In this document: positions 15,772 to 23,651 of the stretch, in pieces
Layout of the letters: each line of letters opens with the position of its first letter
How positions within the stretch are numbered: position 1 is the first letter of the stretch
Notes under the pieces: generated by a model
Databases searched by the model: none
What the model was told of the DNA's origin: nothing
The model's input: the letters and a program-made list of their open reading frames with translations, nothing else
Source of the DNA: Candidatus Doudnabacteria bacterium
Lineage (GTDB): Bacteria; Patescibacteriota; Dojkabacteria; J137; JAEUSD01
Reading direction: 5' to 3'
DNA: 64,000 bases
Assembly: GCA_016788825.1 (NCBI GenBank)
Contig: JAEUSD010000001.1
Span: 19,391 to 83,390, forward strand
Translations under genes and position numbers: made by a program

Positions 15772-15807
15772 ACCCTTATGCTATCCTAATGTAACTATGT
15801 TTCTAGT

Positions 15808-16251
15808 ATGAATACTTCTAACCCTATCTGGCAACAATTTGATTTGGAGAATAACCTCCTGAAAGAGTATCAGTATTGGATGCTTCTAGTCCGCAAGAAG
15901 AATGTGAAGTTAGGAACATGTGTCGCTATTTTAAAGCGTGATGCCTTCCCTCTATCAGAAGCCACCTCAGAAGAAATGGCAGAATACGCACTGGTTGCAA
16001 GAGAAGTCGAAACAGCCTTAAAAAGTGCTTTCAAACCTCACTTAGTTCAACATCTAGCACTTATGTTCAAGGATAAACAAGTTCACTTCCACATTATCCC
16101 CAGGTATACAGAGGTCATTGAATTTGCAGGCCTACGTTGGGAAGATGATAATGTTCCTGATCCCTTATCCCAAAAGGGTGGGGAAGTAACCCAAGAGGTG
16201 CTAGAACAGATTAGGCAAGAACTCAAAAAGCACTTACGACAAGTCGTTTGA
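15808..16251 (+). CDS. HIT-like domain protein (degenerate histidine triad)
   Basis: 147 aa. Motif KQVHFHIIPR resembles the HIT signature H-phi-H-phi-H-phi-phi with the first His replaced. Assignment is tentative. Confidence 0.45.
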   Translation: MNTSNPIWQQFDLENNLLKEYQYWMLLVRKKNVKLGTCVAILKRDAFPLSEATSEEMAEYALVAREVETALKSAFKPHLVQHLALMFKDKQVHFHIIPRYTEVIEFAGLRWEDDNVPDPLSQKGGEVTQEVLEQIRQELKKHLRQVV

Positions 16252-16974
16252 TCCCAAGTAGTGTTTCAGCGTGAATTTCAAATTTGGATCTAGGTCTGTT
16301 TGTTTGCTGAGCCAGATTAGATAGTCAGGCTCAGATTTGGCTACTTCTTCCCAGGTCTTACCTTTGTGTTTTCCAAACTTTACATGTCTTAGCAAGATCG
16401 GTTTAGTTGCTAGATCTTGCATGTGTTGTAAGATGATTTCCTCCTCTGTTGTGTCGAGTTGTTCAGAAACCACAGCATACAGTTTGCGAAAGAGTTTTTC
16501 CAAGATTATTACATCTCCTTCTGCATCGTGGGCTGTTACCCCAGGCTCATCCAAATCAAGCGCATAGCGCAGGTATTGTAGACTTCGACTTTGTAGTGGC
16601 TCTTCGTTCATATCTTTTTCTAGATACTTGTGAGCTACTTTGAAAGTGCAAATATATTTGGGTGTTTCTATCCCTTCGTTGCGCAGTATTCCGATATCAA
16701 ACTCTGCGTTGTGAGCGACAAGGATGTTGTTTTTAAGTAGCTCAGGAAGCTTTGTATATTCTTCATGATCAGCAAATGCTGGCTTGCCTTCAAGCATTCG
16801 GGGGTGGATATGGTGGACAGACATTGCAAAGAATGAGATTGGGACAGGCGGCTGGTACAGCTGGTTTACCATCTCCCCTCCGTCGAGTTTGTACGCCAGC
16901 TGTACCAGCCGGTCTCCCGGAAAGGCATTACCCGCAGTTTCAGTATCTAAGAATATTACGTTCACGAGATACAT
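16234..16974 (-). CDS. DnaQ-like (DEDDh) 3'-5' exonuclease with a C-terminal DUF3820-like domain (exonuclease X-like)
   Basis: 246 aa. Exo I motif FLDTETAG, Exo II HNAEFDIGIL, Exo III H..D (AHDAEGD). C-terminal KFGKHKGKTWEEVAKSEPDYLIWL matches the DUF3820-type tail seen on ExoX-like enzymes. Confidence 0.75.
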   Translation of the reverse strand: MYLVNVIFLDTETAGNAFPGDRLVQLAYKLDGGEMVNQLYQPPVPISFFAMSVHHIHPRMLEGKPAFADHEEYTKLPELLKNNILVAHNAEFDIGILRNEGIETPKYICTFKVAHKYLEKDMNEEPLQSRSLQYLRYALDLDEPGVTAHDAEGDVIILEKLFRKLYAVVSEQLDTTEEEIILQHMQDLATKPILLRHVKFGKHKGKTWEEVAKSEPDYLIWLSKQTDLDPNLKFTLKHYLGSNDLS

Positions 16975-17028
16975 TCTACCAAATTAAGCTAACGAAAGGC
17001 CTTTTTGCTGAACAGTGGGTAAAAATAT

Positions 17029-18795
17029 TTACTGTCGTGGATTGCCGGTGACGGTCACTTTGTTGTTTGTAAGGTTCGGATCTGTGATGCTAGCGTCTTG
17101 TGTAAGCTCCGATGTAATTGTGATTGAGTTAGTGGATGAGTTTGTCACAAAACTCATCCCAGCCGTCGCCGTGCTAGCTGCAGCAAGATCAGCACTAAAG
17201 ATACAAACTATTTGCCTGGCCGTACTTTGGCTGCAGGTTGCCTGGCCTGATGAAGACGGCCTTATGGAAACGTCCACACTAAAGTTCGTAGTTACCTTGA
17301 TAGCCTTGCTTACACCGGGTCCTGCATTTCGTACATTTACGATCCATTGAGTAGGATTTGTGGCACTTGTTTGTGGAACAAGCCTGGTTGAAGTAACAGT
17401 CAAATCGGCTATATTATCCGTATTTGGTAAGTCTACATATTCATTTGTGAAGGTGATTTTTCCTAGTTTAAAATCCCCTCCCGCTACTTCGGAATCCCTA
17501 AATACTATGTTATCCGCAGCATCCACAAATGCAAGGAATATATCGCGATTGCGAGCAAAAAACTCCCGTACCTCTCCCGTATTGGCCAGACGACTGAGCG
17601 GGAGAGTGACCCCAGCTTCAAATCCGATTATGAAGTAGACGCTGTCAAGCGGTCCTGGGTTTAATTGGGCCAAACCACCGACACCGTTGAAATAGGCACT
17701 TAGGTCAAACTCCTTGGTACTTGCATTGTTGGGATTCAAGAGAAAGGCACGTCTATTGTAAATGTACCCCCACCCAGAAACAATTGCACCAATTTGATTA
17801 TTTTTACCAATTATAGGTCTGAGCAAGAGGTCTTCCCTCTCCTCAGGCTTACCTAACGCCACTGCACTCAATTGCACATCTACAGTTGTCTTAGTCGGTA
17901 GGTATCCCCTCACATACGGAGTTGCATCTGGGGCAGAATAGAAAAGCGCTGCTGAGTCAAAAGGAGTGAAAGTGAACTGGAATGCATAGATGGCATTTTG
18001 AGCATTTATTAAGTCTTGGAAGTTGATCACCGTTTCCCCCACCCTACCATTTGTCAGACGCTTCACCGTTCCGTACAAACTATTCGCAGGCAATGCCGCT
18101 CCCTGAGCCCCTCTTGCTATACTGCTAACTATGTATATCCCCCCACGATAGTCTTTCACCAGATTAAACGAACGTGCATGATTCTGTGCCTGGTCATAGC
18201 CTGTAGGGGCACCTACATTGATTTTGGCAAATGATTGTACGGCACCTGTTGTAATAGTTACTTTGTGGACTTCCAATTGAGTAAACGTAGTATCGGTAAA
18301 ACTTGTAAGATATATTGTGTTATTCAATTCGTCTATTAAAATCGGCCTGGAATTGTTTGTAGAATCGGTTAGAAATCGCTTACCATTCCCTACCGGCAAT
18401 GAGGTGGTAGTTTCTTGTCCCAATGGAAGCTTAGCAATGGCATGCTCAAAGTAAATATTCCCGTCAAAATAGATAGAGTTGCTTTCAAGCACGTAAATGG
18501 AATTGTTCATTTGAAAGATCCGCACAGGATAATAGCTATCCGAATACCTACGAGAAGCGATATCTTCTGTAATTATGTATTTACGGCAACGGTTGGTAGT
18601 AAATACATAGCCATCGGGGCATGGGTCTGAACGGACAGGAACTGCTACGGCCGCTTTTGGGGTGAGTGCTGCCACACTGACATCTTGCTCTGGAGCCGCT
18701 GGCACTGTGAGGGTTTGGATTACAAGTGCTGTCACCACAAACAGAGCCAACAACAATACAAACACGACTCCTGGGCTAAAATTCCTAGTGCGCAT
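17029..18795 (-). CDS. secreted/surface protein with a C-terminal DUF11 (conserved repeat) domain
   Basis: 588 aa. N-terminal signal/anchor (VVFVLLLALFVVTALVIQTL). The C-terminal ~110 aa resemble the DUF11/TIGR01451 repeat (WIVNVRNAGPGVSKAIKVTTNFSVD...LTNNKVTVT). Confidence 0.65.
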   Translation of the reverse strand: MRTRNFSPGVVFVLLLALFVVTALVIQTLTVPAAPEQDVSVAALTPKAAVAVPVRSDPCPDGYVFTTNRCRKYIITEDIASRRYSDSYYPVRIFQMNNSIYVLESNSIYFDGNIYFEHAIAKLPLGQETTTSLPVGNGKRFLTDSTNNSRPILIDELNNTIYLTSFTDTTFTQLEVHKVTITTGAVQSFAKINVGAPTGYDQAQNHARSFNLVKDYRGGIYIVSSIARGAQGAALPANSLYGTVKRLTNGRVGETVINFQDLINAQNAIYAFQFTFTPFDSAALFYSAPDATPYVRGYLPTKTTVDVQLSAVALGKPEEREDLLLRPIIGKNNQIGAIVSGWGYIYNRRAFLLNPNNASTKEFDLSAYFNGVGGLAQLNPGPLDSVYFIIGFEAGVTLPLSRLANTGEVREFFARNRDIFLAFVDAADNIVFRDSEVAGGDFKLGKITFTNEYVDLPNTDNIADLTVTSTRLVPQTSATNPTQWIVNVRNAGPGVSKAIKVTTNFSVDVSIRPSSSGQATCSQSTARQIVCIFSADLAAASTATAGMSFVTNSSTNSITITSELTQDASITDPNLTNNKVTVTGNPRQ

Positions 18796-18840
18796 AACGG
18801 ATATAGATATGTACTACTGTAAGGGAAGAAAGGTGCGAAG

Positions 18841-19605
18841 TCAATTCGGGGCCTTGGGGTGCAACTTCAAGTCCATCTTTGTCAAAAATTCCAAGGCCAC
18901 CTCTTTAGTCAACTGAAATACCTCTGCCTTGCTGTAGCTTTTTTGGCGTTGAGCAAATTCGACTTTGGCGGCAGCGCCGTGGGCGCTGCCGTAGTCTGCC
19001 TTTTTGTACTGCATGTAAATCATTTCTACAAATTCGTGCATCAGAATATAGGGTCGTTCAGACTCTTGGACCTGATCTTCGATCCAGATCTCGCCTTTGG
19101 GTATCCAAGGATAGACGTATCCATGTCCGCCTTCGATGAACTCTGTACGGTAATGGTTACGAACCTCTTCTCCGTTTACGATCCAAACTGTCACATCTTC
19201 GCCGAAAAATTCACCATATTTGTGGAGGCGGATCTCGGGCGCCACGTCAGATCCATCAGCTGTTTCATCGTAAATGTCGCCCGACAATTGCCACCGCAGC
19301 TTTTGTTCTAATGCCAAGGAAGTATCGTATGCTTTTTCCCAAGGGGTTCCTGCTTTCATGAGTCTGGCATAGGCCAATGCGTGGTGGATATAGCATTGCC
19401 TGTCGATTTCCGTTGCCTTCTGATTTATCCAAATCTCTCTTTCGGGGATGAAATCAAAATCATAGTGGCTACCGAAGCCGCCGAATTCTTCGGCGGTTTC
19501 ACTGCTGTTGCGTACCACTAAGTCGTCAACCAGATAGACTTTATAATCACCATAGGTATCAAGTAATTGTTTGGAGGTCTCTGACATTTTATACGTTACT
19601 TTCAC
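18841..19605 (-). CDS. hypothetical protein with an internal tandem domain duplication
   Basis: 254 aa. Two ~85-aa halves align. Shared pattern: V.V(D/N)...VRN.......GG.G....(F/W)IP...EIWI.......R..YI..H(H/E). No known family recognised. Coupled to the upstream GNAT gene. Confidence 0.6.
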   Translation of the reverse strand: MKVTYKMSETSKQLLDTYGDYKVYLVDDLVVRNSSETAEEFGGFGSHYDFDFIPEREIWINQKATEIDRQCYIHHALAYARLMKAGTPWEKAYDTSLALEQKLRWQLSGDIYDETADGSDVAPEIRLHKYGEFFGEDVTVWIVNGEEVRNHYRTEFIEGGHGYVYPWIPKGEIWIEDQVQESERPYILMHEFVEMIYMQYKKADYGSAHGAAAKVEFAQRQKSYSKAEVFQLTKEVALEFLTKMDLKLHPKAPN

Positions 19606-20155
19606 CGATAAAGAATACTTCTACTGACTGGAGTACCTTGGCGAATTTATCTCGAGAGTTTATAGGGGCAATCATACCCGAATCATCTTCGTGCACTTGG
19701 CCAGATTTACCAACAAAGGAATAGTTCCTGCCCAGAGGTTGGAATCCAAACTTTGCAAACATTCCCCCCAACTTATCAATATCGGTATTGAGAAATGCTA
19801 TGTCCGCACCCCACTCCTGCGCAATTTTCAACCTTTCCTCAATTAATTTGCGGCCCACTCCTTCTCCTCTGTGCTCCTTAGCTACAGTCAAACCTCCTAG
19901 CCCTGCTATTTTTAACTTTTCACCTTGAAATTCAACTTCTTTCTTGAAGAATGTTGCCACACCGACCAATTCATCTCCTAAATATGCAAGAACGTAAGTG
20001 TCGGGATCTTTCCAAAACCATTCCTTTATTTCCTCTGCCCAATCTGGATCTCCCGCCTCCTCAATGTCGAAGTTTCTATCTCCAAAGTTTTTACGTACTA
20101 TTTCTAGTTCGGGAGATAACTCGGAGAAGGTTTGAATTTGGATTTTTTCAGGCAT
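19589..20155 (-). CDS. GNAT-family N-acetyltransferase
   Basis: 188 aa. Acetyl-CoA binding motif A region (AKEHRGEGVGRKLIEERL) and the typical GNAT beta-alpha topology. Confidence 0.8.
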   Translation of the reverse strand: MPEKIQIQTFSELSPELEIVRKNFGDRNFDIEEAGDPDWAEEIKEWFWKDPDTYVLAYLGDELVGVATFFKKEVEFQGEKLKIAGLGGLTVAKEHRGEGVGRKLIEERLKIAQEWGADIAFLNTDIDKLGGMFAKFGFQPLGRNYSFVGKSGQVHEDDSGMIAPINSRDKFAKVLQSVEVFFIGESNV

Positions 20156-20163
20156 TCGCCATT

Positions 20164-20637
20164 CTACACCGCAAAGCTGAAGAAGTCTTCGGGTAGTTGG
20201 AGTCCGAAGGGAAGCACAGGCGCTGGGCCTTTGAGGTAGGTCGCCAAATCATGAGACTCGCGACGAAGTTTCTCTTCATAACCTAAAACTAGTAGGGTAT
20301 TGCCGCTTGCGGCCCCGAGTTCACGTTCAATATTCATATCTTTGTAAACCCGCACATCGGCCAAAGGCCCAGAACGATCATCAACGAAGTTCCCATTAAA
20401 TTTCCACATATCCAGCATCTTACTACCTTCAAAATTCCAGATGAAAGAGATAGCATAGTTCATATCGGCGAAGTATTTAGGGTCGGACTTTATTAGCTTA
20501 CGGACATGTCGCTCTAGATCTTGTTGTTGAAAACCTTTGTAAGAATCGACTGCATCCCTATCTGGGTAAACGATTACTTGCTTACCGTCAATGAATAAGT
20601 CAATTGAATTGTAGAAGCTGTAGTTGGATATTGTCAT
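20164..20637 (-). CDS. hypothetical protein
   Basis: 157 aa ORF with coding-like composition. It lies 8 bp upstream of the GNAT gene on the same strand. No recognisable motif. Confidence 0.55.
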   Translation of the reverse strand: MTISNYSFYNSIDLFIDGKQVIVYPDRDAVDSYKGFQQQDLERHVRKLIKSDPKYFADMNYAISFIWNFEGSKMLDMWKFNGNFVDDRSGPLADVRVYKDMNIERELGAASGNTLLVLGYEEKLRRESHDLATYLKGPAPVLPFGLQLPEDFFSFAV

Positions 20638-20652
20638 AATAATGAATTTAAT

Positions 20653-22026
20653 TTATTTATTCTTCGCCACAATTTTGACCTGCGCTAGCTCGTGGAAACC
20701 ATACTTGCCATGTTCACGTCCAAACCCAGAGTTTTTGTAACCCCCGAATGGGTTAAATGGCATGATGTAGTTAGTTCCATTCACACTCACCATTCCAGAC
20801 TGAATTGCTGATGAAACTCTCTCCGCTAATTCGCTGTCTGCGCTGAACACATAAGCGCCCAACCCGTAGGCAGTTTCGTTCGCTAGAGCGATGGCTTCCT
20901 CTTCTGTTTTGAAAGTCATAATCGGCAGCACTGGACCAAATACTTCCTCGGTCCACACACGCATATCTTTCTGCACATTTGTCAGAATAGTAGGAGCATA
21001 GAAGGCTCCACCAAGTTCTTTCTCCAAACTCTTACCTCCCACAACAACCTCTGCGCCATTGGCAACAGCGTCTTCTACTTGAGCAACTAGTAGGTCTAGC
21101 TGACGTTTGGCAACCAAGGGGCCAGTTTCAGTTGCCGCATCTTCAGCGTTTCCAACCTTTTTTACCTCAAACACTTCTTTTAATTTCTCTACCACCTTGT
21201 CGAAGATACTCTCGTGCACGATCAACCTCTTCAATCCGTCGCAACATTGTCCCTGATTTAATAGTCGATTGAAGCACACCGTACCTACCGCGACCTCCAA
21301 ATCTGCATCCGCAAACAGAACCCCTGGTGCGGAACCGCCCAACTCCATCACTGCTTTGATAAACTTTTCGCCTGCAAGCTTGTATAAGTACTTACCTGTC
21401 TTTGTGCTTCCGGTGAAGTTAATCAGATTAATATCTTCGTTTACTAATACATCACCAACCTTACCGTCGCCATAAACTTCGGCGAAAACATCTTTGGGTA
21501 AGTGCTTAGTCATCACTTCTTCGATAAATTTACCGCTTAGTGGACACTCTTCAGAATGCTTCAATACAACTGCGTTTCCCACAAGTAAGTTCTGAATGCT
21601 TGCCCACACGAAGTTTGCAAAAGGAAAGTTCCAAGGGATTACCACTGCTGCGACGCCGATGGGTTCAAAGAATACTTGGTGCAATTCGGCGTCGCTCTCG
21701 AAAGTCGTTTCCGGAGCTAAGTACTTTTCAGCATTATCCAGGTACCACGAGAAATAACTGGCACTTCCGTCTACATCACTCAACGCTTCTGTGATAGGCA
21801 TACCCATTTCCTTGGCTTGTATCGCTGCTAGCTCTTCTTTGCGAGAAACAAATTCGTCCAAAGCGCTACGTAAGTGTTCGATTCTTTTGGCTAAACCTAT
21901 ATCTCTCCAGGCGACCCGCGCAACGTGTGACTTGGCTACCTTATCTTTAATTTCCTGTGGTGTAGATACTTCAACTTCATCAATAACTTCGTAATTTGAG
22001 GGGTTTATGGACTGTATTTTGGCCAT
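20653..22026 (-). CDS. NAD(P)-dependent aldehyde dehydrogenase
   Basis: 457 aa. ALDH glutamate active-site region ELGGSAPGVLFADADL and the catalytic Cys region FNRLLNQGQCC. Rossmann GxxxxG regions are present. Confidence 0.9.
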   Translation of the reverse strand: MAKIQSINPSNYEVIDEVEVSTPQEIKDKVAKSHVARVAWRDIGLAKRIEHLRSALDEFVSRKEELAAIQAKEMGMPITEALSDVDGSASYFSWYLDNAEKYLAPETTFESDAELHQVFFEPIGVAAVVIPWNFPFANFVWASIQNLLVGNAVVLKHSEECPLSGKFIEEVMTKHLPKDVFAEVYGDGKVGDVLVNEDINLINFTGSTKTGKYLYKLAGEKFIKAVMELGGSAPGVLFADADLEVAVGTVCFNRLLNQGQCCDGLKRLIVHESIFDKVVEKLKEVFEVKKVGNAEDAATETGPLVAKRQLDLLVAQVEDAVANGAEVVVGGKSLEKELGGAFYAPTILTNVQKDMRVWTEEVFGPVLPIMTFKTEEEAIALANETAYGLGAYVFSADSELAERVSSAIQSGMVSVNGTNYIMPFNPFGGYKNSGFGREHGKYGFHELAQVKIVAKNK

Positions 22027-22144
22027 TTAGGTTTCGAGAATAATAGTAGCCAATGTTAACAAACTTTCTAGGGATGTCTAGACTATTCTGGTTTCTTCCT
22101 GGTTTAGAATATTTTACTGTGTTTGCACAGAGTACAGGGGGGGG

Positions 22145-23113
22145 TTAACTCTCTAACTGACTTATCGACTTGAAGTAGTTTTCTAGTTCTTCTCTTACAT
22201 CCTTTGCTATCTCAGAGCCAAAACTACTAAGGACAAGCTCTACCAAGAAACCCTGGAAAAGTTTATCATTAGTTACATTCTTCTTAGCTCTAAGATACCT
22301 CACAGCCACCCTCCCTTCTCTACTAAGTCTATCTCCAATATTCCTTAGAAACTTATTTCTATTTAGCCCTCTCCAATTTAGAAGGGCAATTAAATCGTTA
22401 ATCCGACTACTTGCTTTCTGAGCTTCCTTGCTCTTAAAGGAGTTTGCTAAGTCCTTTATCAGATCATCCCAAGAGAAATTTTGCATAAGTTTTGTTAAGT
22501 ATCCACCATCATCACCCTCTGGGGCTGTCACTTCAGCTTCCCCCGAAATGGACAAGGTCGCCAACCTCTTAAAAAAGGGACTTGGTACATAATAACCCCC
22601 ATTTTCTATACACAGGATAACGACTAACTTAGACCTCCATTTCTGTAAGTACCTAAGCATCCCCACGTCTTTGTCTTCATTAGCTGCCAGTACTACACCA
22701 TAATCAGTTTTTAACTGAAGTGCTGAAAGTCCCATCTCTAGTGCATCAATCTCTACTTGAAAAGTCTGAGATAGTCTTACTATAAAATCATTCTTTAATG
22801 CTTTCAGATTAATTTCTCCAAACTCAGGGGGAATTGGAGTACTGTTAGTTACAAACCTAACAACTTCCTGCACCAAAAGTAACTTCTGGGCAATGTTTAG
22901 TAAATTAAACAATTGTCCTCCTAGCTCAATGTCATCGAATTCTATTTGTGTGGCTACTGCGTTCCTTTCCTCCTGCGGAACATCAATAACGGAACTAATT
23001 GAGTCCTGCCATTGCTGGAGGATTTCTCCTGAGACATATTCAAGTAAAGCAATGGCCTGTCTAGCCTGTTCATTTGAGAATACGTAAACATCCAGATTAA
23101 TAATATTTTTCAT
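22145..23113 (-). CDS. hypothetical protein (AT-rich, lineage-specific)
   Basis: 322 aa ORF in a distinctly AT-rich segment between the ALDH gene and tRNA-Ser. No recognisable domain. Confidence 0.55.
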   Translation of the reverse strand: MKNIINLDVYVFSNEQARQAIALLEYVSGEILQQWQDSISSVIDVPQEERNAVATQIEFDDIELGGQLFNLLNIAQKLLLVQEVVRFVTNSTPIPPEFGEINLKALKNDFIVRLSQTFQVEIDALEMGLSALQLKTDYGVVLAANEDKDVGMLRYLQKWRSKLVVILCIENGGYYVPSPFFKRLATLSISGEAEVTAPEGDDGGYLTKLMQNFSWDDLIKDLANSFKSKEAQKASSRINDLIALLNWRGLNRNKFLRNIGDRLSREGRVAVRYLRAKKNVTNDKLFQGFLVELVLSSFGSEIAKDVREELENYFKSISQLES

Positions 23114-23160
23114 GTCTGGATATTACCATTATATTACTATAACTGAACAGTACACATGAT

Positions 23161-23364
23161 TCAAGAAAATAGTTGGGGAAGTTTCATAGGAAGTTGGCCT
23201 ACATGAGCCAGTAGGTTCTCATGTTCTCCGGGGTGAAATGGATCTAGGGTCGCGCGGTTAGTAGTTCCATACGCTTTCGTAAGGTCCACCAAGCCGTCTA
23301 TTATTTTGTCTAGTTCTCCTTTATTTATACCCACCATCGACTTCAATAATACTTCCGTTGACAA
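23161..23364 (-). CDS. small hypothetical protein
   Basis: 67 aa ORF immediately upstream of the 322-aa ORF on the same strand. It may be spurious. Confidence 0.25.
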   Translation of the reverse strand: MSTEVLLKSMVGINKGELDKIIDGLVDLTKAYGTTNRATLDPFHPGEHENLLAHVGQLPMKLPQLFS

Positions 23365-23474
23365 AACTGGCTATCAATAAAAAGGTCTTCTATTCCAAAC
23401 CAATTCTAAGCTCTGCCTGCCTGTTAGGAAAGGCATCGCTGTCAAAATATTATTATTTATCTTTGAAAGACCTT

Positions 23475-23562
23475 CGGAGAGGGGGAGATTCGAACTCCCG
23501 CTGGGTTTTACCCCACTAACTCGTTAGCAATGAGTCCCCTTGAGCCTCTTGGGTACCTCTCC
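23475..23562 (-). tRNA. tRNA-Ser (anticodon GCT), class II with long variable arm
   Basis: The reverse complement folds as GGAGAGG-TA-CCC..GGG-(ACTCA)TTGCTAA(CGAGT)-long variable arm-GGGAG TTCGAAT CTCCC-CCTCTCC-G. It closely parallels E. coli tRNA-Ser(GCU). Discriminator G. There is an A31-C39 mismatch in the anticodon stem. Confidence 0.85.
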
Positions 23563-23651
23563 AATAAAATTTCGCAAAATTTGTATTGCAATACATTGTT
23601 GGCGAAACGGACAAATTATAACATCAGTGCATAATTTAAGTCTCTCAAAAT

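Follow-up and report, generated by a model that had tools for sequence, protein, structure and literature searches.

A candidate host-resident copy of a tandem HExxE phage module in a gene cluster of Candidatus Doudnabacteria

Four closely spaced genes in a 64,000-nt stretch of DNA from a Candidatus Doudnabacteria bacterium (contig JAEUSD010000001.1; the whole stretch is called the window, and coordinates are window positions unless another source is named) encode an aldehyde dehydrogenase (ALDH), a 157-aa protein, a GNAT N-acetyltransferase and a 254-aa protein. Our analysis suggests, with a probability that we put at roughly 0.55, that these are juxtaposed genes and that the 254-aa protein represents a phage module, probably a metal-dependent hydrolase, which resides in the host as a solo copy. 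This module, which is widespread and unnamed, would be made up of a catalytically intact domain and a degenerate homolog of it, each of ~100 aa. Each domain is predicted to have a zincin-like layout, in which two long helices come after a small β-sheet with a backing helix; HExxE stands on the first of these helices in the place of HExxH, and the second carries a conserved His and Glu.

Duplication, conserved residues and predicted fold of the 254-aa protein

The 254-aa protein and its parts lie at the following positions:

18841..19605, minus strand: 254-aa protein, a stand-alone tandem module with a degenerate N-terminal half and an intact C-terminal half
19282..19572, minus strand: N-terminal half, residues 12-108, degenerate, with HHALA for HExxE and AY for AH
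18934..19233, minus strand: C-terminal half, residues 125-224, the intact copy
19024..19038, minus strand: HEFVE, the HExxE motif (H190-E194) on the predicted first long helix, at the site of HExxH in zincins

The original prediction had described this protein as two homologous halves and as suggestive of an enzymatic or ligand-binding pseudo-dimer with conserved Arg, Glu and His residues, and both the duplication and the enzyme-like appearance were borne out. Within the protein, the alignment of residues 19-102 with residues 135-222 reached a Smith-Waterman score of 81, compared with 27.6 +/- 4.8 (maximum 51) for 1000 shuffled sequences (z=11), and at the family level the profile of the N-terminal halves matched that of the C-terminal halves in hhalign with a probability of 99.8% and E=5.8e-30. 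Exactly one half carries the signature HExxE...H...E in 170 of 180 diverse relatives. A degenerate N-terminal half is combined with an intact C-terminal half in 153 of these 180 members, while the reverse arrangement was found in 10 and neither half is intact in 2. The tandem pair with one degenerate copy is obligate, barring rare single-domain forms. Conservation across the 180 relatives reaches at least 90% for 19 residues (V143, G145, R149, G159, G160, Y165, P169, E172, W174, E183, H190, E191, E194, M198, Y205, A208, H209, E216 and R220), all of which are present in the intact half of the window protein. The residues H190, E191 and E194 of the HExxE motif are conserved at 96-99%, and H209 (95%) and E216 (93%) are both located on the helix that follows the HExxE helix.

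The AlphaFold2 model of the 254-aa protein, with a predicted local distance difference test (pLDDT) score of 88.9, shows for each half a predicted β-β-α-β-β topology followed by two long helices, with HExxE on the first and AH…E…R on the second. This predicted layout would correspond to the zincin core, a sheet followed by two helices, in the description given by Iyer et al. (2017; PMC5512222). When the model was compared with BFVD using Foldseek, one probable true homolog, a giant viral protein, was retrieved with E=2.4e-6, and the next hits were weak matches to small phage peptidase, SprT-like, metallopeptidase and IrrE-like proteins (probability 0.8-0.99, E 0.03-0.3). The recognisable structure matches, though weak, agree on peptidase-type zincins and are consistent with a zincin-like fold class. 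With such a fold, the intact half would bind a metal via H190, E194 and H209 (or E216), a ligand set of two His and one Glu as in gluzincins, except that His and Glu would have traded places between the helices. The general base would be E191, and the degenerate half would form a built-in pseudo-dimer partner; the product would be a metal-dependent hydrolase, most likely a peptidase.

A number of results weigh against this interpretation. In the motif census HExxE was counted in 163 domain occurrences, while HExxH was never seen at that position. A Pfam scan of 32 family members at E<=10 returned scattered noise and no zincin family, and a sequence-profile search of the PDB gave 0 matches at E<=10. 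Likewise, the profile of the active half did not align significantly in hhalign with either a YgjP-like protein or the HEVIH region of a giant phage protein (L021) that itself contains the module. This non-significant L021 alignment sets 'GDVWLD...IFHEVIH' opposite 'GEIWIE...LMHEFVE'.

Distribution of the module and its association with phages

The family was delimited by profile hidden Markov model (HMM) searches with the family alignment, and its size is given as the number of cluster representatives at E<=1e-3. An exhaustive HMM search yielded 2,695 representatives, of which 2,218 scored at <=1e-10 and 460 at <=1e-30; beside this number, the 34 relatives recovered by a word-indexed homolog search show that the apparent rarity of the family was an artefact of sensitivity. 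Among the best 150 representatives, 110 are solo proteins of at most 300 aa and 32 are longer than 400 aa, the longest having 2,399 aa. In IMG/VR the module was found in 14 loci, including contigs of 259, 250, 187 and 110 kb. A pattern scan of 185,579 species genomes returned 2 loci only, and tblastn searches of GenBank phages and PLSDB plasmids detected one metagenomic podovirus (three identical records) and zero plasmids. In MW202743, a complete podovirus genome of 42.6 kb, a single-domain gene is located between the genes for the portal and the scaffold/major capsid protein. The solo tandem proteins occur in bacteria, in one archaeon and in large elements bearing ParB, primase and SNF2 genes, often with an integrase nearby. 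In addition, a subfamily of lipoproteins with a signal peptide or lipobox (P0028, P0030-P0033; L030:5815-6714) is found in metagenome-assembled genomes of Bacteroidales and Ignavibacteria, and its order is the reverse of that in the main family: HExxE...H...E is intact in the N-terminal half, and the C-terminal half is the degenerate one.

When the long members and the open reading frames (ORFs) in the IMG/VR loci were scanned with Pfam and PHROG, a broad range of fusion partners emerged. Fusions to a portal domain (Phage_portal or Portal_Mu) were found in four independent cases (L026, L028, P0081 and P0152), and in P0139 the module occurs together with a genuine Phage_Mu_F domain. Other partners are protein-modifying domains (ART-PolyVal, Peptidase_C39, GNAT and SET), phosphoester-related domains (InPase, acylphosphatase and 2H/Acb1-like phosphoesterases), domains acting on DNA or in transcription (Topo IB, SNF2/Strawberry-notch helicase and sigma-70), as well as KTSC, RMF and a DarB-like antirestriction C-terminus. 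Polyvalent proteins are packaged and injected by phages and conjugative elements, and solo copies of their domains as well as remnants in host genomes have been described (Iyer et al., 2017; PMC5512222). With these hallmark partners and its linkage to portal, MuF and head genes, the module belongs to the polyvalent-protein repertoire of these authors. No Pfam LPD or MPTase-PolyVal model matches it, and no published HExxE zincin-like phage module was found in the literature searched. In phages, the module is either fused to portals or located, for the most part close to the N-terminus, in giant polyvalent proteins, which would be packaged into the capsid and injected with the DNA.

An HExxH string is present in 10 of the 32 long members, in about 8 cases within a zincin-like context, compared with fewer than 1 expected by chance. 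The idea that the module substitutes for a canonical HExxH processing metallopeptidase (MPTase) was rejected, since about a quarter of the long members also have a canonical-looking HExxH motif elsewhere in the protein. An example is the 2,171-aa giant phage protein L021:141-6656, in which the tandem module occupies approximately residues 480-700, a canonical HEVIH motif lies near residue 1100 and the C-terminus matches DarB-like antirestriction PHROGs.

Two other functions of the module have to be weighed against that of a peptidase-like hydrolase. It could be a non-catalytic capsid- or portal-anchoring (packaging) domain like MuF/SPP1 gp7, which tethers cargo for encapsidation and ejection and whose conserved polar residues bind metal, DNA or the portal. 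This would agree with its occurrence immediately behind a portal domain in four or more independent proteins, with its start among the first 100 residues of 15 of the 32 long proteins, as is the case for MuF in MuF-toxin fusions, with the single-domain gene in the classical MuF/gp7 slot between portal and scaffold/major capsid protein, and with the finding that a metallopeptidase region of the N4 virion RNA polymerase is required for encapsidation (Iyer et al., 2017; PMC5512222). However, the His/Glu/Arg constellation is 95-99% conserved and is lost in exactly one half, which is the pattern of an enzyme joined to a pseudo-enzyme. Moreover, a genuine Phage_Mu_F domain stands alongside the module in P0139, no Pfam MuF match was obtained in 32 members even at E<=10, and neither the chromosomal solo copies in bacteria and an archaeon nor the lipoproteins with signal peptides have a capsid to bind. 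We consider such a non-catalytic anchoring role unlikely.

It is quite unlikely, in our assessment, that the module is not a peptidase but a nuclease, a phosphatase, a signal-degrading enzyme or another metal-dependent enzyme with nucleotides or phosphoesters as substrates, although a number of neighbours point in this direction. P0125 is a fusion of InPase, module and acylphosphatase, 2H/Acb1-like domains are present in P0106, P0138, P0148 and P0157, and Metallophos occurs in L004. Furthermore, in a Planctomycete-like contig (L010, 7001-8400) the module gene is followed after 6 bp by a gene for an inorganic pyrophosphatase, and in an archaeal contig (L012, 7001-10928) an acylphosphatase gene is found at a distance of 3 kb. 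The frequent presence of canonical HExxH peptidase motifs in the same polypeptides also suggests that the module does something else. On the other hand, the domains of polyvalent proteins are typically unrelated to each other in function (Iyer et al., 2017; PMC5512222), the consistent structural neighbours are only peptidase-type zincins, and the fold does not resemble those of known nucleases or phosphatases.

A more far-reaching proposal, which we advance tentatively and with somewhat less than even odds, is that the tandem HExxE modules form an unnamed clade (at least 2,700 clusters) of ligand-swapped zincin-like enzymes, in which Glu takes the place of the helix-1 His of HExxH and His that of the helix-2 Glu, and which are built as pseudo-dimers with one live and one dead site. 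Tailed phages, jumbo phages among them, would package these enzymes through portal fusions and polyvalent proteins and inject them as a separate class of effectors, and solo copies such as the one described here would have been domesticated under purifying selection.

Gene cluster and sister strain

The features surrounding the 254-aa gene, compared with sister strain L007, are:

23474..23563, minus strand: tRNA-Ser(GCT), predicted with ARAGORN, which bounds the variable region
20626..23463: strain-variable segment of 2.84 kb with the 322-aa orphan and ALDH, absent from L007 (blastn of L007 against the window, junction sequences)
22145..23113, minus strand: 322-aa orphan ORF in an AT-rich stretch, GC 0.398 vs ~0.445
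20653..22026, minus strand: NAD(P)-dependent ALDH, 457 aa, absent from L007
20164..20637, minus strand: 157-aa orphan, alpha/beta fold in the model, relatives without known function
19589..20155, minus strand: GNAT N-acetyltransferase, 188 aa, intact here, Pfam Acetyltransf_1/9/7/10 above cutoffs
19640..19936, minus strand: GNAT core segment, 297 bp, residues 74-172 including the acetyl-coenzyme A (AcCoA) motif, deleted in frame in L007
17029..18795, minus strand: 588-aa protein with an N-terminal hydrophobic segment and C-terminal DUF11/CARDB, 45 bp downstream of the 254-aa gene

The four ORFs at 20653..22026, 20164..20637, 19589..20155 and 18841..19605 and their gaps of 15, 8 and -17 bp were confirmed in the sequence as originally predicted, as were the identities of the ALDH and the GNAT, both of which are solidly assigned. 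The ALDH is a full-length match to PF00171 (Pfam Aldedh; 4e-136, residues 3-453 of 457). Its scores for all 25 NCBIfam equivalogs listed were far below cutoff, the best being TIGR01780 (succinate-semialdehyde dehydrogenase) with 348.6 bits vs 646, so that the assignment stays at the level of the superfamily. The GNAT scored 50.3 bits with Acetyltransf_1 (cutoff 20.7) and 50.5 bits with Acetyltransf_9 (cutoff 25), both at ~3e-13, shows the AcCoA-binding motif RGEGVG (R/Q-x-x-G-x-G/A type) and is 100% identical to the NCBI entry 'GNAT family N-acetyltransferase [Candidatus Doudnabacteria bacterium]'. For the 157-aa and 254-aa proteins, searches of Pfam, NCBIfam, PHROGs and PADLOC gave no match to a named family, as had been anticipated from the sequence. 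For the 254-aa gene an alternative ATG start at 19587, the one called in L007, would give a protein of 248 aa and turns the 17-bp overlap with the GNAT gene into a 2-bp gap. The co-directional cluster comprises more than four genes, with the 322-aa orphan upstream and the 588-aa CARDB/DUF11 protein, probably a surface protein, downstream; no convincing terminator was seen inside it, and the four genes may be co-transcribed.

These four genes are nevertheless a lineage-specific juxtaposition in an indel-prone segment and no conserved functional unit. The sister strain L007 is ~98% identical to the window at the DNA level across the genes for SerRS, a response regulator, the 588-aa protein (99% identical at the protein level) and RNase T. 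In L007 the side with tRNA-Ser and the response regulator joins the 157-aa gene almost directly, so that window positions 20626-23463 with the 322-aa ORF and the ALDH are missing, and the GNAT is cut to 89 aa by an in-frame deletion of 297 bp (99 codons) that removes residues 74-172. Both the 157-aa and the 254-aa genes are intact in L007, and with ratios of nonsynonymous to synonymous substitution (dN/dS) of 0.04 and 0.14, respectively, both are under purifying selection between the two strains. When all cluster proteins were searched by tblastn against 37 fetched loci, co-occurrence was found in L007 only. None of ~25 independent loci of the 254-aa family, 3 independent loci of the 157-aa family and 3 neighbourhoods of GNAT orthologs repeats any of the pairings. 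Homologs of the 254-aa protein are found in phage-like or unrelated contexts, those of the 157-aa protein adjoin CHAP, glyoxalase, NUDIX or MFS genes, and the GNAT orthologs (60-67% identity) adjoin TP_methylase/HAD or GlmS/YbaK/AspRS genes. A conserved neighbourhood, for which the original prediction had proposed a check, is thus shared only by L007, and there only in part. The ALDH and the GNAT are best seen as accessory enzymes of an ordinary kind that can be dispensed with.

The original prediction had interpreted the ALDH, 157-aa, GNAT and 254-aa genes as an operon for a small-molecule modification or detoxification pathway, and this we now regard as very unlikely. Apart from the common strand, the spacing of 15, 8 and -17 (or +2) bp and the lack of a convincing internal terminator, such a pathway could find support in the polyvalent protein P0116, which joins a GNAT with the module, and in an unrelated GNAT gene located 5 kb from the module in one homolog locus. 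However, the GNAT of P0116 is only marginally similar to that of the window (24% identity over 72 aa), and the pathway reading is unsupported because L007 has lost the ALDH and the GNAT core, while both unknown genes persist there under purifying selection, and because the independent loci of the 254-aa, 157-aa and GNAT genes lack the same neighbourhood. Even more improbable is the second suggestion made from the sequence, a GNAT toxin of the AtaT/TacT type with unusual partners, for instance with the 157-aa protein as antitoxin. Although a small GNAT gene does lie directly downstream of a small gene of the orphan type in a variable region, the 157-aa protein has neither a DUF1778/ribbon-helix-helix or other DNA-binding signature in Pfam and NCBIfam nor an antitoxin-like fold in its model, the best NCBIfam similarities of the GNAT are to the Eis, RimI and ArsN2-type families, all below cutoff, and PADLOC returned nothing meaningful. 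Moreover, homologs of the 157-aa protein were found without the GNAT and GNAT orthologs without the 157-aa gene. The toxin reading is therefore not borne out, because a DUF1778-type antitoxin is lacking and the 157-aa gene remains constrained (dN/dS 0.04) in L007, where the GNAT is destroyed. In favour of the toxin reading, P0035 and P0199 both stem from contigs of 1,237 bp, which may be one and the same, and would then represent a probable third strain in which the 157-aa gene and the GNAT are adjacent.

The synonymous divergence (dS) between the window and L007 is 0.63 for the 157-aa gene and 0.30 for the 254-aa gene, which is 5-10x that of the flanking genes (0.04-0.09). This high-dS segment corresponds to positions 18841-20637 of the window and 5239-6735 of L007. 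Because dS is 5-10x that of the flanks while dN/dS is low, allelic exchange or recombination with a more distant lineage is suggested for the segment from the 157-aa to the 254-aa gene. The deletion in the GNAT gene (L007 5718-5987) is exactly in frame and leaves in place the 3'-terminal part of the ORF, which adjoins or overlaps the 254-aa gene at its start; this retained end may keep the translational coupling to the 254-aa gene. The variable segment begins right at the 3' end of tRNA-Ser(GCT). The signature of an integrative element was considered and rejected, as neither att-like direct repeats of >=14 nt around the segment nor an integrase in the cluster were found. Additional differences were seen within the same 8 kb, in which a HIT gene (~15772-16233) is present only in the window and an RrnaAD methyltransferase gene, located between the 588-aa gene and RNase T, only in L007 (8525-9304). 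The ~8 kb downstream of tRNA-Ser (window 15772-23463) represent an indel hotspot between strains that are ~98% identical.

The 157-aa protein remains an orphan, and no viral loci of its family were found. Its homologs P0042, P0045 and P0047 have an additional 70-100 aa at the N-terminus (…IFDxTVAxY…LLIIEDxxFA…), which gave no Pfam match, so that in these longer proteins the 157-aa unit takes the place of a C-terminal domain. For the 322-aa ORF, which lies within the most AT-rich 2-kb bin near the cluster, neither a family match nor a homolog among the fetched loci was found.

Significance and comparison with known systems

The operon does not merit further work as a candidate pathway, and the value of the locus lies in the family of the 254-aa protein. 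This protein is a small stand-alone representative, well folded in its model (pLDDT 89), of a module that was missed by the domain and phage libraries searched and that occurs commonly in uncultured phages, some of them very large, as part of injected polyvalent proteins or portal fusions. Should the module prove to be an active metallohydrolase whose zincin site is rearranged, it would represent both a new catalytic variant of the zincins and a new class of virion-delivered effectors, and thousands of blank regions in giant phage proteins could be annotated. The purifying selection on the 254-aa gene in a reduced genome of the candidate phyla radiation also raises the question of what benefit the host derives from its product.

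Among known systems, the toxin-antitoxin pairs AtaT-AtaR and TacT-TacA resemble the cluster in that a small GNAT gene is preceded by a small gene, but the window differs from them in the lack of a DUF1778 antitoxin, in the unconserved pairing and in the lack of a match to toxin-type GNATs. The minigluzincins (proabylysin and projannalysin, PDB 4jiu) are single-domain archaeal proteins with HExxH and Glu, and their similarity to the module is marginal. MuF / SPP1 gp7 (PF04233) shares with the module the gene slot between portal and scaffold/major capsid protein, the fusion to portals and the position N-terminal to variable effector domains; however, the module has no sequence match to MuF, co-occurs with a true MuF in P0139 and has other conserved residues. 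The MPTase domains, i.e. MPTase-PolyVal, the ArdC C-terminal domain, SprT-like and IrrE/ImmA M78 domains, share the niche of the module in polyvalent proteins, portal/MuF fusions and solo copies in hosts. They would also share a predicted core, in which a small β-sheet is combined with an active-site helix and a second helix that would supply a further ligand, with an HE dipeptide at the equivalent place on the first helix, and they are the sole consistent, though weak, structural matches of the module. In contrast to these domains, the module matches no Pfam zincin profile, has HExxE and never HExxH, with a conserved His and Glu on the following helix, and forms a tandem pair with one degenerate copy, which is often found beside a canonical HExxH domain in one and the same protein.

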